This document shows positions 1 to 24,449 of a DNA stretch of 32,000 nucleotides, piece after piece. Positions within the stretch are counted from its first letter, which is position 1; each line of letters starts with the position of its first letter. Made by a program: the position numbers and the translations under genes. Source of the stretch: Orenia metallireducens. GTDB lineage: Bacteria; Bacillota; Halanaerobiia; Halobacteroidales; Halobacteroidaceae. Location: the NCBI RefSeq assembly GCF_003001995.1, contig NZ_PVNB01000019.1, positions 29,120 to 61,119 of the forward strand, given 5' to 3'. The notes under the pieces are model-generated. The model ran no database searches. It had not been told where the DNA came from and saw nothing but the letters and a program-made list of their open reading frames with translations.

Positions 1-2825
1 AGTTTAACCTGCAACTGCGCTACATCAATTTCAATCTTATTATACTCTTTTTGTAGCTTTTCATATCTAGCTCTAATATCCTTAGATTCCTGTTGATATG
101 AATTGATCTTAGCTTTAATCTCTGAAATCTCTATTCTAAATTCATCAAGAAGATTCTTTAAGCGGACAACCTCCTTGCTCATCTCTTCCTTCTCTTTATC
201 TAGCTCTTGCTTTCTGAAATTAAGTTGTTTATCCTTATCCATCAAGCGTTTTATCTCTTCTTCTTTATTAGTAATTTCATCCTTAGCATAGGCTATTGCC
301 TTCTCTTTAGACTCTAGCTCTTCAGCCAAGCTTCCTTTTTCTTGCCTTAAAGCAGCTATACTTACCTTCAGCTCTGTAATCTCATCTGTGTATAAAGCTT
401 TAGTTGCCTCTAGCTTTTTTATCTTCTCTTCTAGCTCTATAACCCTCTCTTTAATACTAGAATCATCATTGTTCAATCTACTTAAAGCTTGAGATAACTC
501 TTTGCTCTCAGACTCTAAACTGATAATCTCTTGCCTTAGCTCTTTTATTCTAGAGTCTTTAGCAGCCAACTCACCTCTTAATCGCTCTACCTCTCTGTTA
601 GCCTGTTGATAGTCCTTTAAGTAATTGGCCTCTTTAAGCTCTAGTTGGTGAACCTGTTCTTCTACCTTAGTTAATTTATTCTCAGATTCAACTAAACTCT
701 CTTTTACCTTAAGACCTGATTCTTCTCTTTTCTTTAATTTAAGAGTCAAATCTTCAACCTGATTAGATAAAACCCCAATCTCTCTAGAACGCCCCAATAA
801 ATTGTTGTTCTGATTGCGGCTTCCTCCTGTCATAGCACCTCCAGGGTTAACTACATCACCATCTAAGGTCACTACCTTTACCCTCTTATCAGCAGCCTTG
901 GATACTTTAACAGCAGCATCAATATCCTTGGCGATAATTACCCTACCAAGGAGGTTCTCGATAATATTCTGATATTTTGAATCATAGCTGATTAAATCTT
1001 TGGCAACACCAATAGCTCCTTCTATCTTTAAGGCAGAGAGTTCAGATTGGTTTAAAGAGCGAGAAGATATTAAGTTAAGGGGCAAGAAGGTAGCTCGTCC
1101 ACCCTTGCTAGTCTTTAAATATCTAATTGCTTGTTTGGCAACCTGATCATTCTCTACAACAACATTCTGTAAAGTACTACCTAAAGAGACTTCAATAGCC
1201 GTTTCATACTCTTGGGGTGTATTAATTAATTCTGCTATTACCCCACAAACACCTTTTATCTGCTCACTATCTTCAATATGTTTAAATAGATTCTTAACCC
1301 CTCTATAGTAGCCTTCATAGTTCTCTTCCATCCCTTCAAGAACCTTTAATCTTGAGCTTTTAGCATTTAAGCTATCTTTTATCTCTTCATACTCATCCCT
1401 TAAGGAAGTTAAGCTGTCTTGGAGCTGGCTATTGTTAGTTTTTTCTCTATTATATTCATTACGATAATCACTTATGTTCTTTTTAATCTCTTCTAGTCTA
1501 CTCTCTTTATTTCTCATCTCTTCTAAGGCTTTATCAACTTCTTTAGTTAAAGACTCTCTTTGCTCCACTAAAGCAGTTATATCCTCTTGATAACGTCTGA
1601 TATCTCTACTTGCTGTCTCTAATTGATGTTGCTGCCTATTAATTTTAGTAATCTGCTTTAATTGATTATCTTGAAAGCCTTTCTTGACCGCAAATTTCTC
1701 ATCTAATTCTCTAGATAAAGTATCTAACTCTTTATTCTTCTGATCCAATAACAAAGACTTTTCTTTGATCTTCTCTAGTAACTCTATCTCTTTCTTATCT
1801 TTTTTTGCAATCTCCTCTTTATTTAAGTTAATCCTCTCTTTTAACCGATTAATCTCACTCTCTAGTCTACCCTTCTGCTCTAGAATATTATCCTGTTGCT
1901 GTTTAGCCAAAGTTAATTTGTTCTCAATCCGCTCTACACTACTTTTAGCCTCAAAGATATTCTCCTTTTGCTGGTCAGAATCTGCTGTTAGCTCCTCTAA
2001 GCGTTCCTTCTCCTTGCCTATTCTCAAATCATATTCACTTACAGCTGATTTTGCCTCAGTTAGTTGATAAGATAGTCGTTGCTTACTAGTAATATCTTGG
2101 TCAAGCTTCTCTTCTAATTCCAAATAAATATTAGCTAGTAAGTTAACCTCTAACTCTTTTAGTTCACTTCTATACTCTTGATATTTTTTCGCCTTCTTAG
2201 ACTCTTTCTCTAAAGGCTCTACTTGCCTCTCTATTTCATGGATAATATCCTTTATTCGCTGTAGCTTCTGCTCTGTACTATCTAACTTCTTTTCTGCCTC
2301 TTCTTTACGGCTCTTATGCTTACTGATTCCAGCAGCCTCTTCAAAAAGCTCCCTTCTATCTACAGAGTTTTCACTTAAAATAGCTTCAACCTTTCCCTGT
2401 CCAATTATCGAATAAGCATCCTTACCAATCCCTGTATCCATAAATAGTTCCTTAATATCCTTTAAACGGCAGGTATTATTATTGATTAGATAGTCACTCT
2501 CTCCACTACGGGTTACTCGTCTACCAATAATCACCTCTTTATAATCAATCGGTAGAGCACCATCACGATTATCCAGGGTCAAGGTAACCTCTGCTAAACC
2601 TAAGGCTCTTCTTTTGCCACTTCCTGCAAAGATAACGTCCTCCATCTTGCCTCCCCTTAAGGTTTTGGCACTCTGCTCACCTAATACCCAACGGATAGCA
2701 TCAGAGATATTACTTTTTCCACTACCATTAGGACCTATAATTCCTGTAATAGCAGGCTCAAAATCTACCTTTACCCTATCAGCAAAGGATTTAAAGCCTT
2801 TAATGGTTATACTTTTAAGAAACAT
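1..2825 (-). CDS. smc: Chromosome segregation protein SMC, N-terminal ~941 codons; the C-terminus lies beyond the left window edge
   Basis: Absent from the ORF track because there is no stop in the window. Reverse-strand translation from the ATG at 2825 gives MFLKSITIKGFKSFADRVKVDFEPAITGIIGPNGSGKSNISDAIRWVLGEQSAKTLRGGKMEDVIFAGS (SMC head, Walker A GPNGSGKS). GGAGG SD lies 6 nt upstream. Long K/E/L/Q-rich coiled coil. Hinge-like KGGRATFLPLNL near 1080-1115. I checked the frame by hand only at the start and at the left edge and found no stop there. Confidence 0.9.
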   Translation of the reverse strand, partial: MFLKSITIKGFKSFADRVKVDFEPAITGIIGPNGSGKSNISDAIRWVLGEQSAKTLRGGKMEDVIFAGSGKRRALGLAEVTLTLDNRDGALPIDYKEVIIGRRVTRSGESDYLINNNTCRLKDIKELFMDTGIGKDAYSIIGQGKVEAILSENSVDRRELFEEAAGISKHKSRKEEAEKKLDSTEQKLQRIKDIIHEIERQVEPLEKESKKAKKYQEYRSELKELEVNLLANIYLELEEKLDQDITSKQRLSYQLTEAKSAVSEYDLRIGKEKERLEELTADSDQQKENIFEAKSSVERIENKLTLAKQQQDNILEQKGRLESEINRLKERINLNKEEIAKKDKKEIELLEKIKEKSLLLDQKNKELDTLSRELDEKFAVKKGFQDNQLKQITKINRQQHQLETASRDIRRYQEDITALVEQRESLTKEVDKALEEMRNKESRLEEIKKNISDYRNEYNREKTNNSQLQDSLTSLRDEYEEIKDSLNAKSSRLKVLEGMEENYEGYYRGVKNLFKHIEDSEQIKGVCGVIAELINTPQEYETAIEVSLGSTLQNVVVENDQVAKQAIRYLKTSKGGRATFLPLNLISSRSLNQSELSALKIEGAIGVAKDLISYDSKYQNIIENLLGRVIIAKDIDAAVKVSKAADKRVKVVTLDGDVVNPGGAMTGGSRNQNNNLLGRSREIGVLSNQVEDLTLKLKKREESGLKVKESLVESENKLTKVEEQVHQLELKEANYLKDYQQANREVERLRGELAAKDSRIKELRQEIISLESESKELSQALSRLNNDDSSIKERVIELEEKIKKLEATKALYTDEITELKVSIAALRQEKGSLAEELESKEKAIAYAKDEITNKEEEIKRLMDKDKQLNFRKQELDKEKEEMSKEVVRLKNLLDEFRIEISEIKAKINSYQQESKDIRARYEKLQKEYNKIEIDVAQLQVK

Positions 2826-3012
2826 AACTTTCCTCCTTTCTTGCATATAGACTTGTAAAATATATTCTATTAAACGTAAAATTCTTTTTATAGTTTAGCT
2901 ATTGTAATACTTTTAGTCTAAGATTAAGGTTTTACTTAGTCTTAAATTTATTCTGTATTTTATATAGGCTCAAATTTTATTTTAACATAAATATAGCAAA
3001 AAATAAACAAAA

Positions 3013-13774: not shown

Positions 13775-15352
13775 CTATAATTCATACCCTTTATGATACT
13801 TAAAGTCCTTAATATAAAATTTTAAGCCTTGCTTTTTAAGCAGTTGCCCTGTTTTTTGAGCTGAAGCCATAGTCTTAAAAGGACCTAACTGTACTTTATA
13901 AGTCCCTTCATTTACAATATCAGCTTCAAAACCTTTTTTCTTTAATTCTTGCGAGAAATTTCTAGCATTCTCTTCTTTATCAAAAGCACCAACTTGAATT
14001 ATAAAAGCTTTAAGCAAATCATCATTAGATGCCTTTTGGCTAACTAATAACAGTTCTTTGTGATCCTGTTCTTTCTTTAAGCTGATATTTTCTTGGTTAT
14101 CATTAATATTTTCTGTCTCTATAGAGGGCTTCTTATCTTGTTTTTTAGTTGGAGTATCTAAGCCACTATTATCATTAATAATCTTAGGAGTAATAAAGAT
14201 AATCAACTCTCTCTTTTCACTTTCAAAGTTCTTTTGACTAAAGAGCTTGCCTAAAATAGGTAGATCACCTAACAGGGGAACTTTAGACATAGTTTCATAC
14301 TCTTTTTCTTGAATCAATCCACCAATAGCTAAAGTCTCTCCACTATTGACCTTGACCTTAGTTCCAACCTTCTTGATACTAACTGTAGGATACCGGGTCC
14401 CATTAATCTCAACCCAGTCTAAAAAGGTGGTTATCTCTGGCTGTAAATCGATAAAAATATTATTGTCATCAGTTATCTTAGGGGTTATCTTCAAATCAAT
14501 CCCGATATTCTTAAACTCTATCTCCTGAGAGGTCTCATCCTCATCTGTTGTCTGGAGTGTTAAAATAGGAATCTCATCACCGATATTGATATTGGCCTCT
14601 TCACCTTCAATCGTTGTAATCTTTGGATTTGCCAAAACATTGGCTACCCCTGAACTCTCTAAAGCCTCTAAAGAGACACTATAATTGAAGTTTAGATTCC
14701 CAATCTTTAAATTCGGCGTAGTACTTGAACTCCCATCATCTACCTTGCCCTCACCTGAAAACTCCCAATTGACCCCTAAATCCTTTAACCCTGTATGGGA
14801 TATCTCTTCAAAACGAACCTGTAAAGCAATCTGCCTTCTAGAGTAATCTAAGGCAGCAATAGTCTCTTCAATTTGATCGAAATTACTTTCATAAGTTGTA
14901 ATAATTAGACTATTAGTGCGCTGATTAATCTTGATTGCCCCATCATCGATTAAATGGTCTAAATTCTCTTTGATCTTTTCTGGGTCAGAGTTTTTGAGTT
15001 TAAAGACTCTAGTTAGCTTAGCTTCATAATTCTTCTTTATCTTCTCAGTAGGAGCAACAAAGATGGTATTATGAATAATTTTATAGCTTAAACCATTGGT
15101 CTTAGTTAGAATATCCATCGCTTCTAAGAAGGACACATTGTCTAAATAAAGGGTAATCTTTCCCTCTATCGAGCTATCAGTGGCTATATTCATTTCTGCT
15201 GTCTCTGCCAAGATTCTAAAGGCCTCTATTAAGTCCATATCCTTAAAATTGAGATTAATCTTATCTTCCTTAGATAACGCCTGTCCAGTAGAATTAAATA
15301 AAAATAATAGCAGTAATAGTAGTATAAATTGATTAATCCTCTTTCTTTTAAT
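13775..15352 (-). CDS. pilQ: Type IV pilus secretin PilQ with C-terminal SPOR domain; predicted non-canonical (ATT/ATC) start
   Basis: Secretin C-domain signatures (VLANPKITTIEGEEANINIGDEIPI; LAIGGLI...SKVPLLGDLPILGKLF...RELIIFITPKII). The last ~78 aa resemble a SPOR repeat. The ORF track starts at the ATG at 15238, but the open frame continues upstream and encodes IKRKRINQFILLLLLLFLFNSTGQA (a Sec signal peptide) behind AAGGAGG. See the finding. Confidence 0.85.
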   Translation of the reverse strand: MKRKRINQFILLLLLLFLFNSTGQALSKEDKINLNFKDMDLIEAFRILAETAEMNIATDSSIEGKITLYLDNVSFLEAMDILTKTNGLSYKIIHNTIFVAPTEKIKKNYEAKLTRVFKLKNSDPEKIKENLDHLIDDGAIKINQRTNSLIITTYESNFDQIEETIAALDYSRRQIALQVRFEEISHTGLKDLGVNWEFSGEGKVDDGSSSTTPNLKIGNLNFNYSVSLEALESSGVANVLANPKITTIEGEEANINIGDEIPILTLQTTDEDETSQEIEFKNIGIDLKITPKITDDNNIFIDLQPEITTFLDWVEINGTRYPTVSIKKVGTKVKVNSGETLAIGGLIQEKEYETMSKVPLLGDLPILGKLFSQKNFESEKRELIIFITPKIINDNSGLDTPTKKQDKKPSIETENINDNQENISLKKEQDHKELLLVSQKASNDDLLKAFIIQVGAFDKEENARNFSQELKKKGFEADIVNEGTYKVQLGPFKTMASAQKTGQLLKKQGLKFYIKDFKYHKGYEL

Positions 15353-15427
15353 GATTCTCCCCTCCTTTTTTTAGAAAGATTTGATAATGTATATATCTCA
15401 TTCTGAAATAAAGTTTAAGATAGATAA

Positions 15428-15532
15428 TGCGACATTTTCGTTATTTTATAAATTTTAATCTTTTTGTAGAGTCTGGTCGCGACCAGACCCTACTTTAGAA
15501 ATTGTTCGTTATCCATTTGAAAAAATGTCACA
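15428..15532. repeat. Nested palindromic element in the pilP-pilQ gap
   Basis: GC-rich 28-nt palindrome GTAGAGTCTGGTCGCGACCAGACCCTAC (15466-15493; 13 of 14 arm positions complementary). It is flanked by the direct repeat TTCGTTAT (15437-15444 and 15505-15512) and by the outer inverted repeat TGCGACATTTT / AAAATGTCACA (15428-15438 and 15522-15532; 10/11). Confidence 0.6.
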
Positions 15533-15608
15533 ATATACCCACATAAAAGATACTATTTATCCTGAAGTTTAACTAGAACGATGAATATAATAGACAATGT
15601 AATCACCT

Positions 15609-16136
15609 CTAATCTCTATCATCAATTCTAAATTCAAAGTAACTCTCACCCTTTTTAAAGGTAGCACTATTTCTAGAGATATCTACTAGAGTAAACCTAT
15701 CGATTTCCTGCCCCTTACTAAGGCGTTTATAATCTCCAGCAAATTCGATATTAACACGCCGATATTCACCAATTATCACTATCCCCTTCAAATCAAAGTC
15801 AGGTCGTTGAATCTCTATCTTCTGCTTTTTCTCAATCTTCTCTTTAACTTCATTATTATTTTTAACCTCTTTAACTCTATCCTCTGCTAGTTTCGTTGCC
15901 ATAGCTACTGCTAGCTTAGAGTTAAAAGGTGATTTCAGTTCAACATCACTATCACTAACTTGACTCTCATTTTTGGGGGATATCTTTATCTTGTGAGACT
16001 CTTTAAGATTACCTTTAGCTATTTTCTCCTTAAAAGCATTTATCTCTTCTCTTTTTTGCCCCCAATTATCTTGATGGTGAAAATACAGTCCACAACTTAG
16101 AATTACTAGCAGTACTAAAATTATCAGTTTTCTCAA
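15609..16136 (-). CDS. pilP: PilP-like pilus assembly lipoprotein
   Basis: Signal peptide with a lipobox-like VILSCG. K/E-rich linker. C-terminal beta-rich module (DFDLKGIVIIGEYRRVNIEFAGDYKRLSKGQEIDRFTLVDISRNSATF) resembling the PilP/GspC homology region. Positioned between pilO and pilQ. TTG start directly after the pilO stop. Confidence 0.55.
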   Translation of the reverse strand: MRKLIILVLLVILSCGLYFHHQDNWGQKREEINAFKEKIAKGNLKESHKIKISPKNESQVSDSDVELKSPFNSKLAVAMATKLAEDRVKEVKNNNEVKEKIEKKQKIEIQRPDFDLKGIVIIGEYRRVNIEFAGDYKRLSKGQEIDRFTLVDISRNSATFKKGESYFEFRIDDRD

Positions 16137-16625
16137 TTATGACTCATTCCTCTCTATAGGAAAAAGGAGGGATACATTTACGACCACTTCTTCTTTACTC
16201 TGTCTGATATTTATAGCTTTGGTATTATAGAGATATTCAATACTCTCTAAAAGATCATATATCTCTTGAAAATTCCCATTGATTTCCAAAGAGATTAATA
16301 GTTCTTCCTTAGGCGGTAGTGTGAAATCTACCTTTTTAATAATTGTATAACTATTCAATTTGATAATAAAGCTATTTATTTCATCCTTATTTAAGAGATT
16401 ATTATCACTACCTTCTTCTAATTCTGCTAATAGAGACTTATACTCCTCCTCTAACTTCTGCAAGGCCAATACTTCTACTCTCTTCTTATCTAATTCGCTA
16501 CTCAGATGGCTAAATTCGATAATATTCTGTTGATATTTAGCATATAAGGGGTTATAGATAAATTCATAGAATCCAGACCCTATTAGTAATAGGATTAGTA
16601 CAATCACAAGCCATTTTTTCCACAT
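16137..16625 (-). CDS. pilO: PilO-like pilus assembly protein
   Basis: 162 aa: N-terminal TM helix, coiled coil, small C-terminal domain. Position after pilN. AAAGGAGAA SD. Confidence 0.6.
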   Translation of the reverse strand: MWKKWLVIVLILLLIGSGFYEFIYNPLYAKYQQNIIEFSHLSSELDKKRVEVLALQKLEEEYKSLLAELEEGSDNNLLNKDEINSFIIKLNSYTIIKKVDFTLPPKEELLISLEINGNFQEIYDLLESIEYLYNTKAINIRQSKEEVVVNVSLLFPIERNES

Positions 16626-16627
16626 CT

Positions 16628-17152
16628 CTATTCTCCTTTCTGCAGGGTCCCCCTTAGCTTAAATTCAAGTCTATCATCTAATTTATCAATTCCTTCTAAA
16701 TAGAACTCATCGAAAAAATCAGATACTTCTAGCCTTTGGTTTAACTGATTTAAATACTTTACCTCAGTTGTAACACCTAAAAGTTGAAAATTATTATTGC
16801 TCAATTGAAAATTCTTCAAATATAATTGATTGGAATATAATAAATCAAGCTCTTTAAAAATCCTAGTAGAAGAAACCATCTTTGCTAAAAATTCATTCTT
16901 TTCACTTAATTTCTCCTCTATATTCCTTCTTTTATCCTTTAAATCCTCCACCTTAAGTAGGCTACTATCTAATTTTGATAGCTCCGTTCTAATTGCTTCT
17001 TGTTTCAATTCTAACTCTTTATTCTCAAAATATAGTTTTAAGTATATATGGCTTATAGAAGCAATCAAAACCAGAGACAGTAACGCCCCTACAAAGATAA
17101 GGTTATTAATCCTCTCTTTCTTAAAAAAATCATCAGTTAAGAAATTAACCAT
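16628..17152 (-). CDS. pilN: PilN-like pilus assembly protein
   Basis: Short cytoplasmic N-terminus, one TM helix (LIFVGALLSLVLIASISHIYL), coiled coil. Follows pilM. I prefer the ATG at 17152 (AAGGGG SD 8 nt upstream) over the GTG at 17161. Confidence 0.6.
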   Translation of the reverse strand: MVNFLTDDFFKKERINNLIFVGALLSLVLIASISHIYLKLYFENKELELKQEAIRTELSKLDSSLLKVEDLKDKRRNIEEKLSEKNEFLAKMVSSTRIFKELDLLYSNQLYLKNFQLSNNNFQLLGVTTEVKYLNQLNQRLEVSDFFDEFYLEGIDKLDDRLEFKLRGTLQKGE

Positions 17153-17177
17153 AGAAAACACCCCTTAATGAAGTTAA

Positions 17178-18035
17178 CTACTCTTCTCTTAAAGCCAGCC
17201 CCTTTACTACAGAGTATAAATTATCCTCTAGCTTAATAGCCTCTATCCCAATCTGATCCTCTAAATAGCTCTGCAGCCCTTTAAAATTACTACTGCCTCC
17301 AGTCAAAAAAAGCTTAGCTACCCTTACCTTATACTCTGACTGAAAATAATCTATCGATTGATAGATTTGGCTCCTTAATTCCTCTAATATAATCCTTAAC
17401 TCTTCCTTAGTAACCCCTTGTTTCTTATAACGTTCTGCTTGCTCAGAGGTGATTCTATTGATAGTAGCTAATTTCTCAGTAATATGCCTTCCTGCAAAAT
17501 CAAAACTCCTTAAAAAGATCAGCCTTCCACCTTGGGCAATAATTAAATCTGTGGTCTTATCGCCAATATCTATCAATGATACCGTCTCACTCAAATCAGG
17601 ATATTGGCTATATAAGTATCTGATATTGGCATGAAATTCCGTTTCTACAACTTTAGGTTTTAGCTTTAAAGCCTTTAGCTGCTCAAAACGCTCTTTAATC
17701 AAAGGCTTCTCAACCCCATATCCTATCACATACTTCTCTTGTAAAGATTCTACTACCTCATGCTGAATCACCAAATTCTCATCGGCAAATTCAAGCTCTA
17801 CCATCTGTTCAATTTCTTTTGTTGATAGGTCATCGGGTATTTTGATAAATTTTATTTTAATATCTTTAGTACTGATGGAAGTGATAGTATCTTTAGAAGT
17901 AAAATTTTTCAATTCTTCTATAGTTAGCTGCTTGTATTCTCCTGTTTTAAATTTATTCTCTTTAAATTCAGCTATCTTAATAGAGTTGCTGATTTCTATC
18001 CCTAATCTTCCTGAATTTTTAAAGATATTGAACAA
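17178..18035 (-). CDS. pilM: PilM, actin-like pilus assembly ATPase-fold protein
   Basis: N-terminus LGIEISNSIKIAEF, central IDIGDKTTDLII and C-terminal LFLTGGSSNFKGL motifs typical of the PilM/FtsA fold. I prefer the TTG at 18035 (MFNIFKNSGRLGIEIS), 6 nt after GGAGGT. The ORF-track start at 18107 overlaps the upstream gene. Confidence 0.8.
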   Translation of the reverse strand: MFNIFKNSGRLGIEISNSIKIAEFKENKFKTGEYKQLTIEELKNFTSKDTITSISTKDIKIKFIKIPDDLSTKEIEQMVELEFADENLVIQHEVVESLQEKYVIGYGVEKPLIKERFEQLKALKLKPKVVETEFHANIRYLYSQYPDLSETVSLIDIGDKTTDLIIAQGGRLIFLRSFDFAGRHITEKLATINRITSEQAERYKKQGVTKEELRIILEELRSQIYQSIDYFQSEYKVRVAKLFLTGGSSNFKGLQSYLEDQIGIEAIKLEDNLYSVVKGLALREE

Positions 18036-18093
18036 AATCTCACCTCCAAATCTAAAATATCCAATTAATATTAAATTCTTATACTTATCAATC

Positions 18094-19596
18094 TTATGGA
18101 TAAACAAATATTAGTCCCGCTTCAGCCGTTGTTAAATGCTTATCTTTATTATTGGCTATCTCTTCTTGACTTCTAGCATAATCCCAAACCCTTAAATCTT
18201 TAATATAGCCATGCCATTTTTCACTATAATCAGGATTGGCTCCAATTACTAATTCATTTGTATTGATAGGAAGAGAGGTTTGAATATTACCTGCACTCTT
18301 TTCTTTGCTAGCATTTACATAAAATTGGTAGCTTCCATTTCCATTTCCATTTCCATTTCCATTTCCATTTCCATTTCCATTTCCATTTCCATTTCCATTT
18401 CCATTTCCATTTCCATTTTCTTTTCCTTTTTCAGCAGGTTGATCATTCTCCCAATAACCTTCATAAACAAAATTTCCATTTTGGTCATAATATCTTCCAT
18501 AACCTGCCTCTCCTTGATTCCATTCACCTTCATACCTCAAGCGACCATTTTGATCATATAATTTGCCATATCCATCATAAACCCCGTTATCCCATCCACC
18601 TTCGTATCTCTTTTTACCATTTTGATCATATACAATTCCCTCACCATCAAGTTTCCCTTTATTCCATCCACCTTCATATCTCATCTTTTGATTCTGGTCA
18701 TATAAGGTTCCCTCTTCATCATATTCGCCATTATCCCATTGACCTTCATATCTCAAATGATTATTTTGATCATATGACTTTCCATATCCACTATAAGTTA
18801 TATCTTCTCGTGCCCCTTCATCATATACTATCTCTTGATTTTGATCATATAAAGTTACTGGACTATAAGATATATCTTCTAAATTATCTTTATATTTTAT
18901 TGGACCATTTGGCGGATAAAGAACATCACTACTACTATTACCTCCTCCACTTCCACTATCTGCTTGAAATTCATATACTACTGCTATATGAGTCCACCCA
19001 GATAAATCAAGTTTAGAGGTTCTTACTGTTTGAGCACCACCATTATTTTTAGTATAGCTATCTACAGCTAGCTTAGAATTTTTGTCTATATAAACTTTAA
19101 AGATACCCCTTCTACTTAATAAAGTAATAGGGAAATTAGCTTTCTCATCCACCTTAACCCATGCTTCGATAGTAATGGCATTACTTATATCAAAGTCACT
19201 ACGATAATCTATTCTTTCATGATCATTTACTCCATCAAAATAATTGCTTATTTTTTTCTTAATCTGTATACTTTTGCTTATATCTTCTATTATTCCAGTA
19301 CTTTTAATTAGCAAATAATCGTCAACTAATTTAACCTCATCAATTCTATAGTCTCCTTCTCCTAAGCTTTGTAGTTCAGTTGTAATAGTACCCTTATCAT
19401 AGCTAATTAATGCTACTTCTACGCCACCCTCTGCCAATAATTTTGCTTTCTCTATTTTTTCCTCTTTTTCAGTCTGATTAATAGTACTATAAATAATATT
19501 ATTCATAGTGGTAATTAAAGTGATAGCTACAGTCATAAGTATCAAGACCAATAATAAAGCCGAACCTTCTTCTTGCTTAATTTGATTATAAATCAT
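18094..19596 (-). CDS. Large PilX-like minor pilin: LamG-type lectin fold interrupted by six MORN-type repeats and an (Asn-Gly)14 tract
   Basis: N-terminus EEGSALLLVLILMTVAITLITTM (PilX_N/GspK-like hydrophobic helix, no G|F cleavage site). LamG/laminin-G_3-like halves: FDGVNDHERIDY...ITIEAWVKVD...WTHIAVVYE and YQFYVNASKE...LVIGAN...WHGYIKDLRVWDYARSQEEI. Between them lie residues 211-421, with six ~24-aa YDQNGxxRYEGxWxxGxxDGxG repeats. Confidence 0.75.
   Translation of the reverse strand: MIYNQIKQEEGSALLLVLILMTVAITLITTMNNIIYSTINQTEKEEKIEKAKLLAEGGVEVALISYDKGTITTELQSLGEGDYRIDEVKLVDDYLLIKSTGIIEDISKSIQIKKKISNYFDGVNDHERIDYRSDFDISNAITIEAWVKVDEKANFPITLLSRRGIFKVYIDKNSKLAVDSYTKNNGGAQTVRTSKLDLSGWTHIAVVYEFQADSGSGGGNSSSDVLYPPNGPIKYKDNLEDISYSPVTLYDQNQEIVYDEGAREDITYSGYGKSYDQNNHLRYEGQWDNGEYDEEGTLYDQNQKMRYEGGWNKGKLDGEGIVYDQNGKKRYEGGWDNGVYDGYGKLYDQNGRLRYEGEWNQGEAGYGRYYDQNGNFVYEGYWENDQPAEKGKENGNGNGNGNGNGNGNGNGNGNGNGNGNGSYQFYVNASKEKSAGNIQTSLPINTNELVIGANPDYSEKWHGYIKDLRVWDYARSQEEIANNKDKHLTTAEAGLIFVYP
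18334..18417 (-). repeat. Perfect hexanucleotide tandem repeat (AATGGA)x14 encoding (Asn-Gly)14
   Basis: I counted 14 uninterrupted CCATTT units on the plus strand. They are in frame within the 18094-19596 CDS (residues 394-421). Confidence 0.95.
18442..18852 (-). repeat. Six diverged ~72-nt tandem coding repeats (MORN-type)
   Basis: The YDQN register recurs at residues 250, 275, 299, 323, 347 and 370. At DNA level the motif TTGATCATA recurs about every 72 nt. Confidence 0.75.
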
Positions 19597-19639
19597 TTAT
19601 TAAATCACCACTATTCCCTTAAATCTTTTAGTCAAGTAA

Positions 19640-20170
19640 TTATTCATATTCAATATAAGAGTATTCAGATAAATAATATTCTTTATTCAATTCTCTAATC
19701 ATATCCTTATTCTTTAATTTAATCCTAATAGTCAATTGTTTCTGACCTTTAGTGAAATTTATATCCTCAAGCATATCAGTGATTATATAACTATCAGCTA
19801 TAGTATCAGTTTGATTACCATTATAAACGATTCTTTTTAGTTTAGTATTTTCTTGCTCATACTTAACTATCTTATCTGTCTCTTTATCTAAATCTATATC
19901 TAACTCTAAAACTAACCTTTTAGAATCTTCAATAGATACTTCTGCAGATCGGTCTATATCCCGCTCTAAATAATTAAAGATCAACTCACTCTGGTCATTT
20001 AATGCACCTTGCTTAGTATTAAAATCAAACATTTCAAATTGAGTAACTATTAGACTTCCCAAAGAGGCAGAGATTAAAGCAATCAACCCAATTACCACTA
20101 CCAACTCCAATAAGGTAAAGCCTGACTCATCGCTAAGCTTAATATTATCTATCTTTAACAATCCTCTCAC
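19640..20170 (-). CDS. Prepilin-type N-terminal cleavage/methylation domain protein (minor pilin, PilW/GspJ-like)
   Basis: ...SDESG|FTLLELVVVIGLIALISA class III signal. 176 aa from the GTG at 20170. An alternative TTG at 20161 lies 6 nt after GAGGTG. Confidence 0.75.
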   Translation of the reverse strand: MRGLLKIDNIKLSDESGFTLLELVVVIGLIALISASLGSLIVTQFEMFDFNTKQGALNDQSELIFNYLERDIDRSAEVSIEDSKRLVLELDIDLDKETDKIVKYEQENTKLKRIVYNGNQTDTIADSYIITDMLEDINFTKGQKQLTIRIKLKNKDMIRELNKEYYLSEYSYIEYE

Positions 20171-20184
20171 CTCAAAGCTCTATA

Positions 20185-20598
20185 TCAATCGACTCTTCTT
20201 CTATCCGCAAGCAAGGTAGTCAGCTTAAAGCTCTGCTCACCCTGATACCAGCTCACTTCTATGATTATCTTCTTCAATCCCACTTCAACATCCTCTAGAC
20301 TAATATTTCTACTAAAATCTATCTTATCTAGCTCTACCTCTCCACTCTGCTCAGTGGCTACCCCTTGCAAGAAAGCACTAAAATCATCACCATCCTCTAA
20401 AGAGTCAGCCTCTGCCCTTAAGACCTCTAAAGAGTTCTTAGCTAGTTCTCTCGCCACAGTTCTTAAATGAATATCCTCTAAGGCTTGGCTACTGCTAGTC
20501 CAATAGCTACTGAAGGCTACTGCTACTATTCCTAAGATTGCTGTAGCTAGAACTATTTCGATTAAGGTAAAACCTGCTTCCTCTTGCTGTAGTTTCAT
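20185..20598 (-). CDS. Prepilin-type N-terminal cleavage/methylation domain protein (minor pilin, PilV/GspI-like)
   Basis: MKLQQEEAG|FTLIEIVLATAILGIVAVAF class III signal. 137 aa. Confidence 0.75.
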   Translation of the reverse strand: MKLQQEEAGFTLIEIVLATAILGIVAVAFSSYWTSSSQALEDIHLRTVARELAKNSLEVLRAEADSLEDGDDFSAFLQGVATEQSGEVELDKIDFSRNISLEDVEVGLKKIIIEVSWYQGEQSFKLTTLLADRRRVD

Positions 20599-20623
20599 TA
20601 AATCACCACACTCTTTTTTTAGT

Positions 20624-20651
20624 TGACAATTTACAGTGTACAGTTTACAGT
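20624..20651. repeat. Four tandem heptamers (plus: TGACAAT TTACAGT GTACAGT TTACAGT; minus: ACTGTAA ACTGTAC ACTGTAA ATTGTCA)
   Basis: Read directly. Located 26-53 nt upstream of the 20598 start codon. Confidence 0.8.
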
Positions 20652-20785
20652 GGAGCCGCAGTTATAAACTTCCATTTGAAACTCAAAGATTCTCATCGGC
20701 TCAGGTCGAGTTTTCGCTTTGTAAAACTCGTAGGATAAATAATAACTATAAACTTTACATTGTAGACTGTGTTTGCTTTAAGGAG

Positions 20786-20813
20786 AACAATGGGCAAATA
20801 TTTGCCCATTGTT
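20786..20813. terminator. Strong hairpin just downstream of pilA; the T-tract is on the plus-strand side
   Basis: AACAATGGGCAAA-TA-TTTGCCCATTGTT (13-bp stem). On the plus strand it is followed by TTCTCTTT. On the minus strand (pilA sense) it is followed by CTCCTTAAAGC, with only an A-rich run upstream. Confidence 0.55.
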
Positions 20814-20837
20814 TTCTCTTTAAACAAATAATTATAA

Positions 20838-21269
20838 TTATGGTGCTGTTGGCTTAGTAGTACCAGTAACCTCAAGTTTCTGTACTCCAGATTGAGAACT
20901 GTCTACAAATAAATAATCATCTGCAGATGTATCATCACTATCTAAAGCAAATTTATCATCGTAATATAAAACATATGTTGTATTATCAGTACCAGTTAAA
21001 TAAGTATAATCACCGTCAATAGTAATACCAGCATCTGATAAACTATCTTCATCAGCAGGATAACCAGTATTATCTTCATCTAGTTTATATTGCTCTAATG
21101 CAGTTTGAGCATTTGCTAAACTTGCTCTTACACTATTTTCTGTAGCATCATTACTAATATCACTGACCTGTGGTACGATAATCGCAGCTAAGATACCAAT
21201 TACTGCTACTACTACGATTAACTCTAATAGAGTAAACCCTTCTTGATTTCTGATTAGCTTTTTAAACAT
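20838..21269 (-). CDS. pilA: Major type IV pilin
   Basis: MFKKLIRNQEG|FTLLELIVVVAVIGILAAIIVPQ class III signal with Glu at +5. Very acidic, cysteine-free globular part with a TGTTKPTAP tail. The ORF-track ATG at 21275 abuts the GGAGGA SD with zero spacing, so I prefer the ATG at 21269 (6-nt spacing). Confidence 0.85.
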   Translation of the reverse strand: MFKKLIRNQEGFTLLELIVVVAVIGILAAIIVPQVSDISNDATENSVRASLANAQTALEQYKLDEDNTGYPADEDSLSDAGITIDGDYTYLTGTDNTTYVLYYDDKFALDSDDTSADDYLFVDSSQSGVQKLEVTGTTKPTAP

Positions 21270-21299
21270 CTTCATTCCTCCTAAATTTTATTAATTTAT

Positions 21300-21320
21300 A
21301 TTATAAACTGTAAGAACAGT
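21300..21320 (-). promoter_or_regulatory. Candidate pilA -10 box (TATAAT) with adjacent palindrome ACTGT-N4-ACAGT
   Basis: Minus strand has TATAAT at 21305-21300. The palindrome at 21307-21320 sits where the -10/-35 spacer would be. No convincing -35. Confidence 0.35.
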
Positions 21321-21349
21321 CTACACTCACATTTATCTCTTGACCTTAA

Positions 21350-21380
21350 CTCTTCACTAGTCACTCATTACTCATCACTG
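21350..21380 (-). repeat. 7-nt periodic repeat immediately after the pilC stop
   Basis: Minus strand reads CAG-TGAT-GAG-TAAT-GAG-TGAC-TAG-TGAA-GAG: five NAG triplets, each separated by exactly 4 nt. Confidence 0.75.
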
Positions 21381-21383
21381 CCC

Positions 21384-22616
21384 TTAATACCCTTGTGACA
21401 TCTTAAAGATTGGTAAGATAACTGAAGCTACAATCCCACCAATTCCAAAGGTTAAAAAGATAATCAAGCTCGGCTCCAATAAAGCAATCATTCGAGCAAA
21501 CTTCTCCTCCACCTCATCTTGATAAAAGTCGACAATATCATTGAGTTTTTCTTCTAAACTCCCAGTATTCTCAGCAGTCTGTATCATCTGTAACGCAATA
21601 TCAGGAAAGACATCCTGCTGCTTGAGAGCTGTAGTGATATTGAAGCCATCCTTAATCTTCAGCCTTGCCTTGTCTAACTTGTAGCGGATAGCCCTATTGG
21701 TGATATTCTGGTTGACTATCTCCATTCCCTGTAAGAAAGGGATTCCAGTTCTTTCTAACAGACTTAGATTCTTAGCAAAGATAATCAGTGAATTCTCTAG
21801 AATAAAACCCTTTAAAATAGGTATCTGTAATAATAACTTATCAATCTGATATCTTCCCTTGTCAGTTCGATAATAATAGTAGGTCGATAATAATAATAGA
21901 ATTATACCTAATAACAAAAGCCACCAATAACTGCTCATCAAGTTACTGACTCTCAATAAAATCTTAGTTGGCAAAGGTAGCTCAACATTGAGTTTCTCAA
22001 AGGTCTTCATGAAGTTAGGCAAGACCTTGACCATCATCAAAATCAGTACAATTATTGACGAACCCATAGTAATAATTGGATAAGTAATATTGGAGATTAT
22101 CTCTTTTCTCTTCTCATTCTGATCCTTGAAATAATCTGCCAAGTTCATCAAAGTCTCATCTAAAAATCCCCCTGTCTCACCAACCTCTACTAATCTAATA
22201 AAGTAATTAGAGAAGATATTGGGGGATTGCCTCAAAGCAGCAGAAAAGCTCCTTCCCTTCTCAATCTCTATCGCTATATCTTTAACAGCCCTCTTTAAGC
22301 TCTTATTCTCCACCTGCTTTGCCAAGGACTGCAAGCCGTTAACGATTGGAATTCCTGAGCTAATCATAGATGAGAGCTGGCGACAGAAGATATATTTATC
22401 CTTTAAACCTACTCGAGCTGGTAAAATCTCAATAGAATTCAATTTATCAAGATACCCTTTCAAGCTAAACCCCTTCTTCTCCACTTCTAAGCCCAATACC
22501 AATAAGCCCATAGCCTTTAATTTGGTCAGTGCCTCCTGCTTCGATTGAGCTTCAATTTGCCCTGACTTCTTCCTTCCCGATGAGTCTCGAGCTTGATATT
22601 GAAATTTTTTAGCCAA
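21384..22616 (-). CDS. pilC: Type IV pilus platform protein PilC (GspF family)
   Basis: 410 aa. Two GspF-type repeats, each followed by TM segments. TTG start preceded by a G7 run acting as SD. Confidence 0.9.
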   Translation of the reverse strand: MAKKFQYQARDSSGRKKSGQIEAQSKQEALTKLKAMGLLVLGLEVEKKGFSLKGYLDKLNSIEILPARVGLKDKYIFCRQLSSMISSGIPIVNGLQSLAKQVENKSLKRAVKDIAIEIEKGRSFSAALRQSPNIFSNYFIRLVEVGETGGFLDETLMNLADYFKDQNEKRKEIISNITYPIITMGSSIIVLILMMVKVLPNFMKTFEKLNVELPLPTKILLRVSNLMSSYWWLLLLGIILLLLSTYYYYRTDKGRYQIDKLLLQIPILKGFILENSLIIFAKNLSLLERTGIPFLQGMEIVNQNITNRAIRYKLDKARLKIKDGFNITTALKQQDVFPDIALQMIQTAENTGSLEEKLNDIVDFYQDEVEEKFARMIALLEPSLIIFLTFGIGGIVASVILPIFKMSQGY

Positions 22617-22760
22617 CTTATATCCCCCCCACTCTTAATTAAGACTTATTATTAATCTATGGAGACTAGCAATAGATATTGGATCGTTTAAGTCTAAGGT
22701 TGAGGATAAGTAAACCATACAAATATTGGTCTAATGTTTTACTCAAACTCCGCCTTAATT

Positions 22761-24449
22761 CTAACTAATATCAGCTACTCTCAATACCTCTTCAATACTG
22801 GTTATTCCTTGATTAACCTTATCTAATCCATCTCTAAATAAGGTAATCATTCCTTCTTCAATCGCAACTTGTTCAATCTTATCTGAAGGATCCTTAGCGA
22901 CGATAGATTCCTTGATCTTAGGAGTAACCTCTAATAATTCATGGACAGCAGTTCTCCCTTTATAGCCAATCTGATTACAGAAGTCACAACCATCTGCTTG
23001 AAGTGCTGTGAAATCAGCAGTCAAATAATCATTAACTAGATGATACTCTGTACTATCAACATCACTACTACATTGAGGGCATAGCCTTCTAACCAATCGC
23101 TGAGCAACTACCCCTATAACAGCATCAGCAATCAAGAAGGGTTCTACTCCCATATTAACTAAACGGCTAATTGCTCCTGCAGCACTATTGGTATGGAGGG
23201 TACTCAAGACTAAATGCCCTGTTAAAGCAGCCTGAATAGCAGTCTCAGCAGTCTCCTTATCTCTTATCTCCCCTACCATGATGATATCTGGATCTTGCCT
23301 TAAGAATATTCGCAATACTCTGGCAAAGGTCATATCTTTTTTAGGATTAACAGGGGTCTGAGTAATCCCTTCAATCTGATACTCCACAGGATCTTCAATA
23401 GTTAATATATTCTTAGTATCTTCATTTAGATAATTTAAGGCTGTATATAAAGTTGTTGTCTTTCCACTACCAGTAGGACCTGTCAAAAGTATCATCCCAT
23501 TTGGTTTCTTAATTAACTCTTTGAACTTTCTCAAATTATCTGCCGAAAAACCGATTGAATTAAAGCTCAATTTCAGATTTGTGTTATCAAAGATTCTAAT
23601 TACAACCTTCTCCCCTAACACAGAAGGTAGAATCGATATTCTTAGATCTGCTTTAATATTTCCAAACTCAATATTTATCCTTCCATCTTGGGCCTTTCTC
23701 CTCTCAGCTATATCTAGACCACTCATAACCTTAATTCTAGATACTAAAGCCATATGGATATTCTGATGGAAGACCATCTCAGTCTGTAAAACACCATCAA
23801 TTCGATACCTGACTCTTGTCCCCGTCTCCATAGGTTCAATATGGATATCACTGGCCTTATGGCGAATCCCTGTTACTATTATCTGATTAACAGTCTTGAT
23901 AATAGGTGTATCCTCTAACTGCTCCTGTAATAAGCTCTGATCTATATCATCATCGTCAACAACCTGTTCAAAGGCAATCTCATCGATGCTATCAATAAAC
24001 TCCTCTAACTCCCTCTCTCCCAAATAAGTCTCAATCAAGCTATCTATATTGCTAGGAGTAGTAATCCGCGGCATTACCTCTAAATTGGTCTTCTCCTCTA
24101 TCTCATCAACAGCTACAATATTTTGAGGGTTCTCCATAGCTAAGATCAACATCTTACCCTCTCTTCTAATAGGAAAGACCCTATTCTCTCTAATATACTC
24201 TTCATCTAAAATTCCAATTATCTCATCTTTAATATTCTTTTTATCACTCTCTGTCAACAATAAGATACCTAACTGGTGATTTAAAGAAGTTGCAATCTCC
24301 TCTTCTGTAACTAGACCTAACTCTACTAATATCTGCCCTAACCTCTTATTTGACCTTTTCTGTTCCTTTAATGCTTCTTGTAAATCTTGCTCATTTATTA
24401 AATTTTCATCTATTAATATATCGCCTAAGCGCTTTTTATTTAATCCCAT
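22761..24449 (-). CDS. pilB: Type IV pilus assembly ATPase PilB (GspE family) with N-terminal MshEN-type domain
   Basis: Walker A GPTGSGKTTT, Walker B DPDIIMVGEIRD, His box GHLVLSTLHTN, tetracysteine CPQC...CDFC. The N-terminus carries two RLGxxLLxxGLLxxxxLxxxLxxQ-type motifs. Confidence 0.92.
   Translation of the reverse strand: MGLNKKRLGDILIDENLINEQDLQEALKEQKRSNKRLGQILVELGLVTEEEIATSLNHQLGILLLTESDKKNIKDEIIGILDEEYIRENRVFPIRREGKMLILAMENPQNIVAVDEIEEKTNLEVMPRITTPSNIDSLIETYLGERELEEFIDSIDEIAFEQVVDDDDIDQSLLQEQLEDTPIIKTVNQIIVTGIRHKASDIHIEPMETGTRVRYRIDGVLQTEMVFHQNIHMALVSRIKVMSGLDIAERRKAQDGRINIEFGNIKADLRISILPSVLGEKVVIRIFDNTNLKLSFNSIGFSADNLRKFKELIKKPNGMILLTGPTGSGKTTTLYTALNYLNEDTKNILTIEDPVEYQIEGITQTPVNPKKDMTFARVLRIFLRQDPDIIMVGEIRDKETAETAIQAALTGHLVLSTLHTNSAAGAISRLVNMGVEPFLIADAVIGVVAQRLVRRLCPQCSSDVDSTEYHLVNDYLTADFTALQADGCDFCNQIGYKGRTAVHELLEVTPKIKESIVAKDPSDKIEQVAIEEGMITLFRDGLDKVNQGITSIEEVLRVADIS

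Follow-up and report, generated by a model that had tools for sequence, protein, structure and literature searches.

A MORN-repeat cassette nested in the LamG head of a predicted pilus-tip subunit of Orenia metallireducens

We analyzed a 32,000-nucleotide stretch of DNA (referred to as the window) from Orenia metallireducens, a halophilic, metal-reducing member of the Halanaerobiales, and focused on one gene of a type IV pilus-like operon (18094-19596, minus strand). We found that its product appears to be a K-type minor pilin with a LamG head that is interrupted by a cassette of MORN repeats. The open reading frame begins with ATG; ahead of it lie a TAA stop in the same frame and a Shine-Dalgarno-like GGTGA. 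A previous reading of this DNA, made without database searches (the sequence-only reading), had described a PilX/GspK-type hydrophobic helix at the N-terminus, two halves of a LamG_3 domain (residues ~118-210 and ~422-480) and, at the junction between two strands, an insert of ~210 residues made up of a Gly/Ser-rich segment, six MORN-type repeats of ~24 amino acids and (Asn-Gly)14. All of these elements were found in place, and the length of the insert, determined by alignment to an uninserted ortholog, is 204 amino acids. The parts of the gene are as follows.

18094-19596, minus strand: the entire gene, encoding a 500-amino acid K-type (GspK/PilX-like) modular minor pilin with a LamG::MORN head, as predicted from the open reading frame list, domain scans and AlphaFold
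19393-19596, minus strand: leader (MIYNQIKQEEG, then S) and long hydrophobic alpha1 helix, residues 1-68 (sequence, NCBIfam GspK, helix 2-68 in the model)
19252-19371, minus strand: the pilin module's small beta-sheet, residues 76-115 (AlphaFold strands)
18955-19245, minus strand: N-terminal half of LamG_3, residues 118-214, with the final strand WTHIAVVYEFQ (Pfam, alignments, model)
18850-18954, minus strand: N-side tether, residues 215-249, consisting of GSGGGNSSS and a degenerate MORN-like repeat (absent from the uninserted ortholog P0002)
18433-18849, minus strand: six MORN repeats, YDQNxxxRYEGxWxxGxxDGxG, residues 250-388 (repeats, matches in the PDB, model)
18334-18432, minus strand: C-side tether, EKGKE and (Asn-Gly)14, encoded by (AATGGA)14 and length-polymorphic
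18094-18333, minus strand: C-terminal half of LamG_3, residues 422-500 and stop codon, with the first strand SYQFYVNA (Pfam, alignments, model)

The two segments that flank the insert belong to one LamG fold. Pfam Laminin_G_3 (PF13385) matched the protein in two complementary stretches (E=7.2e-23), with a score of 81.8 bits that passed the gathering cut-off of 27.6; the C-terminal stretch (residues 420-481) corresponds to profile positions 90-151 of 151. With the LamG region of the uninserted ortholog as a phmmer query, residues 112-217 matched positions 1-106 and the C-terminal part matched positions 98-185. Alignment to 23 LamG_3 domains placed the insert exactly in the turn between the conserved strand W-x-H-[IV]-A-x-T-Y-D and the strand x-x-Y-[IV]-N-G. 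The best hits of an exhaustive search supplied 745 LamG_3 copies, in which the loop of this hairpin was 0-17 residues long, with a mode of 5. The sequence-only reading had raised the question of whether homologs share the split. Among ~1000 LamG hits in 199 proteins, no other split LamG was found save that of the target's own 472-amino acid allele, and one further protein (P0004, described below) has the cassette in a head that is not LamG.

Close relatives lack the insert. A 296-amino acid protein (P0002) is 72% identical to the target (75% over the N-terminal half of LamG), has an uninterrupted LamG domain (profile positions 1-151 of 151), and is encoded at the same position in a fully syntenic locus. 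The flanking housekeeping proteins of that locus are 91-97% identical to those in the window and the pilus proteins are 60-91% identical. The 90% cluster of P0002 includes OCL27028.1/WP_068716504.1, annotated as 'LamG domain-containing protein [Orenia metallireducens]'. Global alignment of P0002 with the target has a single gap of 204 residues (residues 215-418 of the target) that lies between ...WTHIAVVYEFQADS and NGSYQFYVNA.... At the turn, the uninserted gene has a single AGA AAT GGA AAA. The (AATGGA)n tract abuts these ancestral Asn-Gly turn codons and may have grown from them. LamG is also contiguous in the positional ortholog from O. marismortui (P0123; WP_134118981.1). Because LamG is contiguous in both P0002 and the O. 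marismortui ortholog, parsimony indicates that the insert is a gain in the lineage of the window. This makes the split a recent insertion into the WTHIAVxY/YQxYxN hairpin turn.

Searches for homologs gave the following results. Word-indexed searches returned 4 hits with the uninserted ortholog as query and 11 hits with a three-sequence profile. Giant multi-LamG proteins dominated the exhaustive search, and three full-length relatives were among the best 150. A scan of genomes with the family alignment had no match, and a scan with PilB found relatives with <=47% identity among the matches listed. The exact 500-amino acid sequence and a 496-amino acid allele were not in a collection of 15 billion proteins, and neighboring proteins of the same genome are in NCBI. 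It may be that the target gene is uncalled, or present with a different number of NG units, in the deposited assemblies.

We also compared the pilus loci of two genomes labelled O. metallireducens (window 13775-24449 and L001 5213-14711). The pilins, PilN, PilO and the 175-amino acid protein were 60-79% identical, and PilB, PilC, the secretin core and the flanking housekeeping proteins were 91-97% identical. Thus, within the pilus locus, divergence is faster for the pilins and for the proteins of the alignment complex. At the corresponding positions in O. marismortui (L088, 4592-5872 and 5949-7457), the J-position pilin is 426 amino acids, with a canonical GFTLLE motif and its own C-terminal LamG module, and the K-position protein has LamG and an extra C-terminal domain of ~180 amino acids. 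Since the J- and K-position proteins are both modular in O. marismortui, the tip subunits of Orenia seem to be a hot spot of module gain.

We used AlphaFold to determine whether the LamG sandwich is reconstituted from the two halves, another question raised by the sequence-only reading. A first run, based on full-length hits aligned with MAFFT (A1), gave a predicted local distance difference test score (pLDDT) of 90-98 for the MORN array (residues 270-385) and <50 for LamG, because the LamG homologs were misaligned across the insert. In MAFFT trials, alignments that mixed LamG and MORN fragments (A3 and A4) were grossly misaligned and were discarded; only the LamG-only set aligned cleanly. The second run used this clean set (A5), with the homologs bridging the insert, and had a mean pLDDT of 77.8. 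The model has a helix (residues 2-68), a four-stranded pilin sheet (residues 76-115), both halves of LamG (pLDDT 73-95 for residues 119-212 and 79-94 for residues 419-499) and MORN hairpins (residues 270-380, pLDDT 82-87). Both tethers (residues 215-246 and 384-416) had pLDDT <50. We compared the model to structures in the PDB using Foldseek. MORN proteins came first (E=3e-6, root mean square deviation of 3.3 Å over 128 columns), followed by the LamG-like module of PAPP-A (~405 columns), 4DQA and pentraxin. These LamG alignments covered ~400-490 columns and necessarily crossed the insert. The assignment of the two halves to one fold thus rests on the contiguous, syntenic 296-amino acid ortholog, the confident prediction of both halves and the span of the Foldseek alignments.

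The insert has a tether on each side of the repeats. In the N-side tether, residues 225-249 align with a MORN repeat of P0004 in BLAST. The six repeats that begin with YDQN start at residues 250, 275, 299, 323, 347 and 370, and the DNA of this block has a period of 72 nucleotides. Pfam MORN (PF02493) matched in four stretches (E=1.3e-4), with 22.1 bits, marginally below the gathering cut-off of 22.5. Using phmmer, the structures of MORN1, MORN3 and junctophilin matched residues 260-392, with E values down to 2e-10. On the C-side, (NG)14 occupies residues 394-421 and is encoded by a perfect (AATGGA)14; Tandem Repeats Finder reported a 6-nucleotide period with 16.3 copies at 18333-18430. We looked for signatures of mobile elements (flanking direct or inverted repeats) around the insert and found none beyond the internal 72- and 6-nucleotide repeats. 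The G+C content of the insert is 0.34, compared to 0.30 and 0.33 for the flanks.

The size of the array is relevant to the tethers. Strands in a beta-sheet are spaced by 4.8 Å, and with this spacing the sheet of six hairpins would be about 5-6 nm long. Both of its ends could therefore not sit at a hairpin turn, which would explain why the tethers are long.

The insert is present in several alleles that differ mostly in the C-side tether. Two loci from independent samples (L003 and L004) have 4 substitutions relative to the window in 21.4 kilobases (99.98% identical) and one in-frame deletion of 84 nucleotides. This deletion removes EKGKE and most of the NG tract and leaves AG(NG)2, and it is the sole indel in 21 kilobases between these strains. 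Another allele (L087), with (NG)12, is 99.3% identical to the window over 3.1 kilobases. Of the 11 mismatches in that stretch, five are within the MORN repeats (window 18433-18849 compared to L087 366-1856). Among these five, S274L restores the GKLYDQN junction present in neighboring repeats, which suggests gene conversion between repeats. A 484-amino acid allele in the 90% cluster (P0214), with the tail AGNGNGNGNRNGNRNGN, is the most divergent of the five insert-bearing alleles, all of which have an intact frame. P0214 is 90.6% identical to the window protein in the MORN block, 92.3% in the pilin part, 96.9% in the N-terminal half of LamG and 91.1% in the C-terminal half. In these comparisons, the insert does not change more quickly than the pilin part or LamG's C-terminal half, and no part of the locus varies more than the tether. 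The possibility of an assembly artefact was considered and ruled out: the insert is present in independent assemblies from NCBI, ENA, Logan and JGI. The 472-amino acid allele (P0211; JGI/IMG) is labelled 'antitoxin component YwqK of YwqJK toxin-antitoxin module' in one source, a probable misnomer for which the MORN-like repeats would account.

A related cassette is found in a second pilin. The best broad-coverage match to the MORN region was P0004 (MFW5962281.1, 'MORN repeat-containing protein'), from the metagenome-assembled genome GCA_048618235.1. Its identity to the target cassette is 54-58% over 147-161 residues, a stretch that takes in the last repeat (YDQNGNF-YEG-W) as well as a tail rich in N, G, D and E. 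P0004 has a PilX-like N-terminus: weak matches to PilX_N were found in P0004 and in a 351-amino acid paralog (E=0.006 and 0.0027). Its locus has minor pilins, P0004, and then PilN/O and a secretin. The minor pilins are in tandem triads of 125-166-351 and 125-164-552 amino acids (L005, 7109-11659). Paralogs in the two triads are 32-35% identical, and only the second K-like protein has the MORN insert. P0004 aligns with the 351-amino acid paralog over residues 27-218 and 432-552 (34-35% identity), leaving a 213-amino acid insert that holds the MORN block. The host domain in P0004 is not LamG; it has a beta-helix-like look and only weak similarity to DUF7305. The pilus machinery encoded by this genome is 20-33% identical to that in the window. 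When the six repeats of P0004 were paired with those of the target, the positional order was the single best of 720 permutations. This argues that the block of six was inherited or transferred as a unit, and was not amplified separately in each lineage. Judging from these alignments, P0004 appears to be a second, independent nesting of a related cassette with positionally orthologous repeats.

The N-terminus of the target resembles that of a K subunit. It reads MIYNQIKQEEG followed by SALLLVLILMTVAITLITT: Gly is at -1, and positions +1 and +5 are occupied by Ser and Leu. That is, it has neither Phe+1 nor Glu5, and a 20-residue hydrophobic stretch follows the Gly. This combination looks typical of K subunits and not of classical pilins. 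Residues 10-62 matched the NCBIfam GspK N-terminal region with E=2.4e-5 and 24 bits (the cut-off is 130 bits). The full-length GspK model (NF037980) had no match, with similarity in the first ~50 residues only, and PilX_N (PF14341) was not reported for the target. Pfam N_methyl did not match the target even at E<=1, and Gly-1 and the hydrophobic alpha1 are present. In the model, the pilin sheet has strands at residues 76-78, 81-91, 94-103 and 106-115, with pLDDT of about 79-95.

The target gene lies between the minor pilin genes and pilM. The operon, on the minus strand, has the order PilB, PilC, major pilin, I-like pilin, J-like pilin, target, PilM, PilN, PilO-like protein, 175-amino acid protein and secretin.

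22761-24449, minus strand: PilB extension ATPase (Pfam T2SSE)
21384-22616, minus strand: PilC platform protein (Pfam T2SSF)
20838-21275, minus strand: major pilin, GspG/ComGC-like (Pfam N_methyl; NCBIfam GspG 6.8e-16, ComGC 5.4e-10)
19640-20598, minus strand: two upstream minor pilins, one of 137 amino acids (GspI/PilV-like) and one of 176 amino acids (ComGF/GspJ-like) (Pfam N_methyl)
13775-18107, minus strand: PilM, PilN, PilO-like protein, 175-amino acid protein and secretin with C-terminal SPOR (Pfam PilM_2, PilN, Secretin, Secretin_N, SPOR)
13775-15238, minus strand: within these, the secretin with its C-terminal SPOR domain (Pfam Secretin, Secretin_N, SPOR)

The two minor pilins upstream of the target both have canonical GFTL(I/L)E motifs and are presumed to be its partners in a tip complex. 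Their NCBIfam matches were to GspI (2e-5), PilV (2.4e-5), ComGF (7e-6) and GspJ (0.028), all below the curated cut-offs. Three Orenia loci and L005 share the position of the target downstream of the I-like and J-like pilins. With its TTG start as called, pilM has 14 nucleotides in common with the end of the target gene (18094-18107) and encodes a PilM of 309 amino acids. In the uninserted locus, pilM starts 43 nucleotides downstream (287 amino acids), and the start called in the window may be too far upstream.

By Pfam scans, no PilY1-like gene is present in the window, the remaining open reading frames all falling in other families, and there was no Pfam match to the C-terminal beta-propeller of PilY1/PilC-type proteins (PF05567/IPR008707) in the target or the other open reading frames of the window. 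The other open reading frames are housekeeping genes by Pfam (SMC, ScpB, a CBS/DHH poly(A) polymerase-like protein, a patatin-like protein, a fragment of an RND pump, and others); ScpA, tryptophanyl-tRNA synthetase and an M50 peptidase were identified through the Pfam families of the near-identical locus L003 and by exact look-up. A 964-codon open frame at 3-2894 (minus strand) that runs off the start of the window is SMC (SMC_N and hinge domains) and is unrelated to the pilus operon.

Based on these results, we propose that the target is a tip-displayed adhesin with two modules, made by a recent cassette insertion. We give this reading a probability of roughly 60%. The protein would be the K-type minor pilin that caps a type IV pilus-like filament in O. 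metallireducens, a diderm Firmicute of the Halanaerobiales, and its N-terminal helix and small sheet would anchor it in the filament. It is without Glu5, and its gene follows those of the I-like and J-like pilins, so its expected place is the very tip. The C-terminal LamG_3 sandwich would be a grafted head of the lectin kind, making the protein a modular pilin. In the lineage of the window strain, a pre-formed cassette (linker, six MORN repeats and N/G-rich tail) would then have inserted in frame into the LamG hairpin turn. LamG is predicted to fold still from its two halves, and the MORN array to fold alone as an elongated sheet of beta-hairpins, its ends far apart, that hangs on the two flexible tethers. 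The tip would thereby show two binding modules: LamG, probably for a glycan, and MORN, for protein-protein interaction or self-association as in the solved cases. Slippage in (AATGGA)n would alter the length of the tether and keep the frame. The data show the anatomy, the polarity of the insertion, an intact fold in the model, the series of alleles and the homologous cassette in another protein; the place at the tip, the adhesin function, the ligands and any influence of tether length are inferred. A role as tip adhesin or lectin, which the sequence-only reading had also put forward, is plausible by analogy to related systems.

Several points weigh against this reading. The I, J and K roles were assigned with hidden Markov models whose scores were all below the curated cut-offs. 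Neither a prepilin peptidase gene nor a PilT gene is in the window. The pairing of the strand at residues 202-212 with that at 419-427 across the split is a prediction from pLDDT, DSSP and the span of the Foldseek alignments. MORN repeats that are close to the consensus inflate the similarity among unrelated arrays. Piliation, tip location and binding in Orenia are predictions.

It is possible, and we hold this only tentatively, that the cassette is a portable module. That is, six MORN repeats with an Asn/Gly-rich tether might move as a unit between the heads of K-type tip pilins of distant bacteria and land in loops at the surface of folds that are unrelated to each other (LamG in the case of Orenia, the beta-helix-like domain in that of GCA_048618235.1). 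At the tip, the module might be a self-associating or protein-binding arm, for example joining the tips of different cells in the way that MORN1 dimerises, with its reach tuned by slippage in (AATGGA)n. The Asn-Gly sites may also deamidate with time, changing the charge of the tether.

Two other explanations seem to us improbable, to about the same degree. In the first, the MORN cassette is a neutral passenger tolerated in a permissive surface loop, and the working unit is the pilin with LamG. However, at least five alleles have an unbroken frame, one of them about 8% diverged, and change in the MORN block is no quicker than in the pilin part or in LamG's C-terminal half. In addition, another K-like pilin (P0004) has a positionally orthologous cassette of six repeats nested in an unrelated head, and the array was predicted to fold, with pLDDT >90 in the first run.

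In the second, the filament is a short pseudopilus similar to those of competence or type II secretion systems, and the head of the K cap captures DNA or a secreted or cell-wall substrate. The major pilin is indeed closest to GspG and ComGC (6.8e-16 and 5.4e-10) and the J-like subunit to ComGF, and PilT is not encoded in the operon. Thermus ComZ, a DNA receptor at the tip with a large extra domain, is a precedent. The beta-solenoid module of ComZ is mentioned by Raynaud et al. (2021; PMC8179133). In contrast, the secretin is accompanied by alignment proteins of the PilM_2/PilN type and not by GspC, L and M, LamG_3 and MORN have no known role in DNA binding, and the MORN block is acidic by inspection.

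Least probable of all is that the target is never assembled and is a signal-anchored periplasmic or surface protein of the cytoplasmic membrane merely encoded in a pilus operon: this would fit with the lack of an N_methyl match, Phe+1 and Glu+5 and with K-type scores below the curated cut-offs, but Gly -1 followed by a 20-residue hydrophobic stretch is as in GspK and PilX, which are likewise without Glu5 (PMC9934059), the position after the I-like and J-like pilins is conserved in three Orenia loci and L005, and the model has a pilin-like helix and sheet.

If the target is a two-module tip adhesin, the locus has several implications. Pilus-tip proteins decide what bacteria attach to, and new tip functions are currently seen as arising when ready-made modules are grafted onto pilins. 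This locus catches such grafting in close relatives at one position of an operon: LamG with a nested MORN arm in several tether-length alleles and, at the same position in O. marismortui, LamG with another C-terminal domain, beside a J-type pilin that itself bears LamG. Relatives with and without the insert would show how pilus tips gain binding modules, and an elongated array with distant ends could nest in a beta-hairpin given long flexible tethers. Should the MORN arm turn out to bind a partner or to self-associate, extracellular MORN repeats of bacteria would have a first concrete role, and the isogenic natural alleles would make testing easy.

The pilin-LamG part of the target is of a known kind. 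The combination of PF13385 and IPR012902 is the most frequent of 264 modular-pilin architectures, with 229 proteins (Raynaud et al. 2021, PMC8179133, Dataset S1). The PilC pilin of Streptococcus sanguinis, modelled at the tip, was shown by experiment to be a lectin: sialylated glycans and heparin oligosaccharide probes are bound by its ConA-like module (PMC9934059). Like this class, the target has a short pilin module and a C-terminal ConA-like/LamG sandwich, is encoded in a pilus locus and is predicted to be exposed at the tip; its LamG_3 domain follows the pilin sheet (Pfam and model), as in modular pilins. In contrast to the modular pilins in that survey, the target is K-type, has no detectable N_methyl/IPR012902 motif or Glu5, and has a LamG domain broken by a 204-amino acid MORN module; without that motif, it would have escaped the survey. 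Its host is a diderm halophilic anaerobe, unlike the streptococcal host of PilC. The sequence-only reading had not recognized the architecture. For the architecture as a whole, that claim of novelty was overstated, given the 229 proteins, whereas the nested MORN array is unreported in the catalogue and in the literature searched. There was no entry for MORN among the 264 architectures (PMC8179133), and no paper linking MORN repeats to pilins was found in the literature searched. A MORN array on a pilin and its nesting in the head domain appear in none of these sources, and neither do the presence/absence polymorphism, the hexanucleotide-encoded variable tether or the related cassette in another pilin head.

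K subunits are without Glu5 and cap the HIJK complex (PMC9934059), and GspK has as its extra domain an alpha-domain that interrupts the pilin sheet (PMC8179133). Like GspK and PilX, the target is without Glu5, is last in the order of minor pilins, and would be a bulky cap subunit with an extra domain. Unlike in GspK, this domain is a LamG at the C-terminus that itself contains a nested insert, and no H-like subunit was identified. The nearest solved structures of LamG, 4DQA (BACOVA_03559, a putative carbohydrate-binding protein; E=2e-5 against P0002 by sequence) and the LamG-like module of PAPP-A, have the same jelly-roll, but neither is a pilin or has an insertion at this hairpin.

MORN arrays in solved cases are protein-protein interaction and dimerisation modules, not lipid binders (PMC7725318). 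The target array resembles those of eukaryotic MORN1, MORN3/4 and junctophilins in its 23-24-amino acid repeat, the YEGxW and GxG motifs, and the elongated single-layer sheet of beta-hairpins. Those arrays are cytosolic and dimerise or bind peptides (PMC7725318). In contrast, the target array is predicted to be extracellular, is nested, and has six repeats only.

Relatives of the target are named 'LamG domain-containing' or 'MORN repeat-containing' in NCBI, and the current labels (LamG, MORN, YwqK antitoxin) hide the pilin identity. A close parallel is P0004, which is also a K-like minor pilin at the same operon position with a cassette of six MORN repeats and an N/G-rich tail inside its head. 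The two differ in the domain that hosts the cassette, which is LamG in the target and a different fold in P0004.

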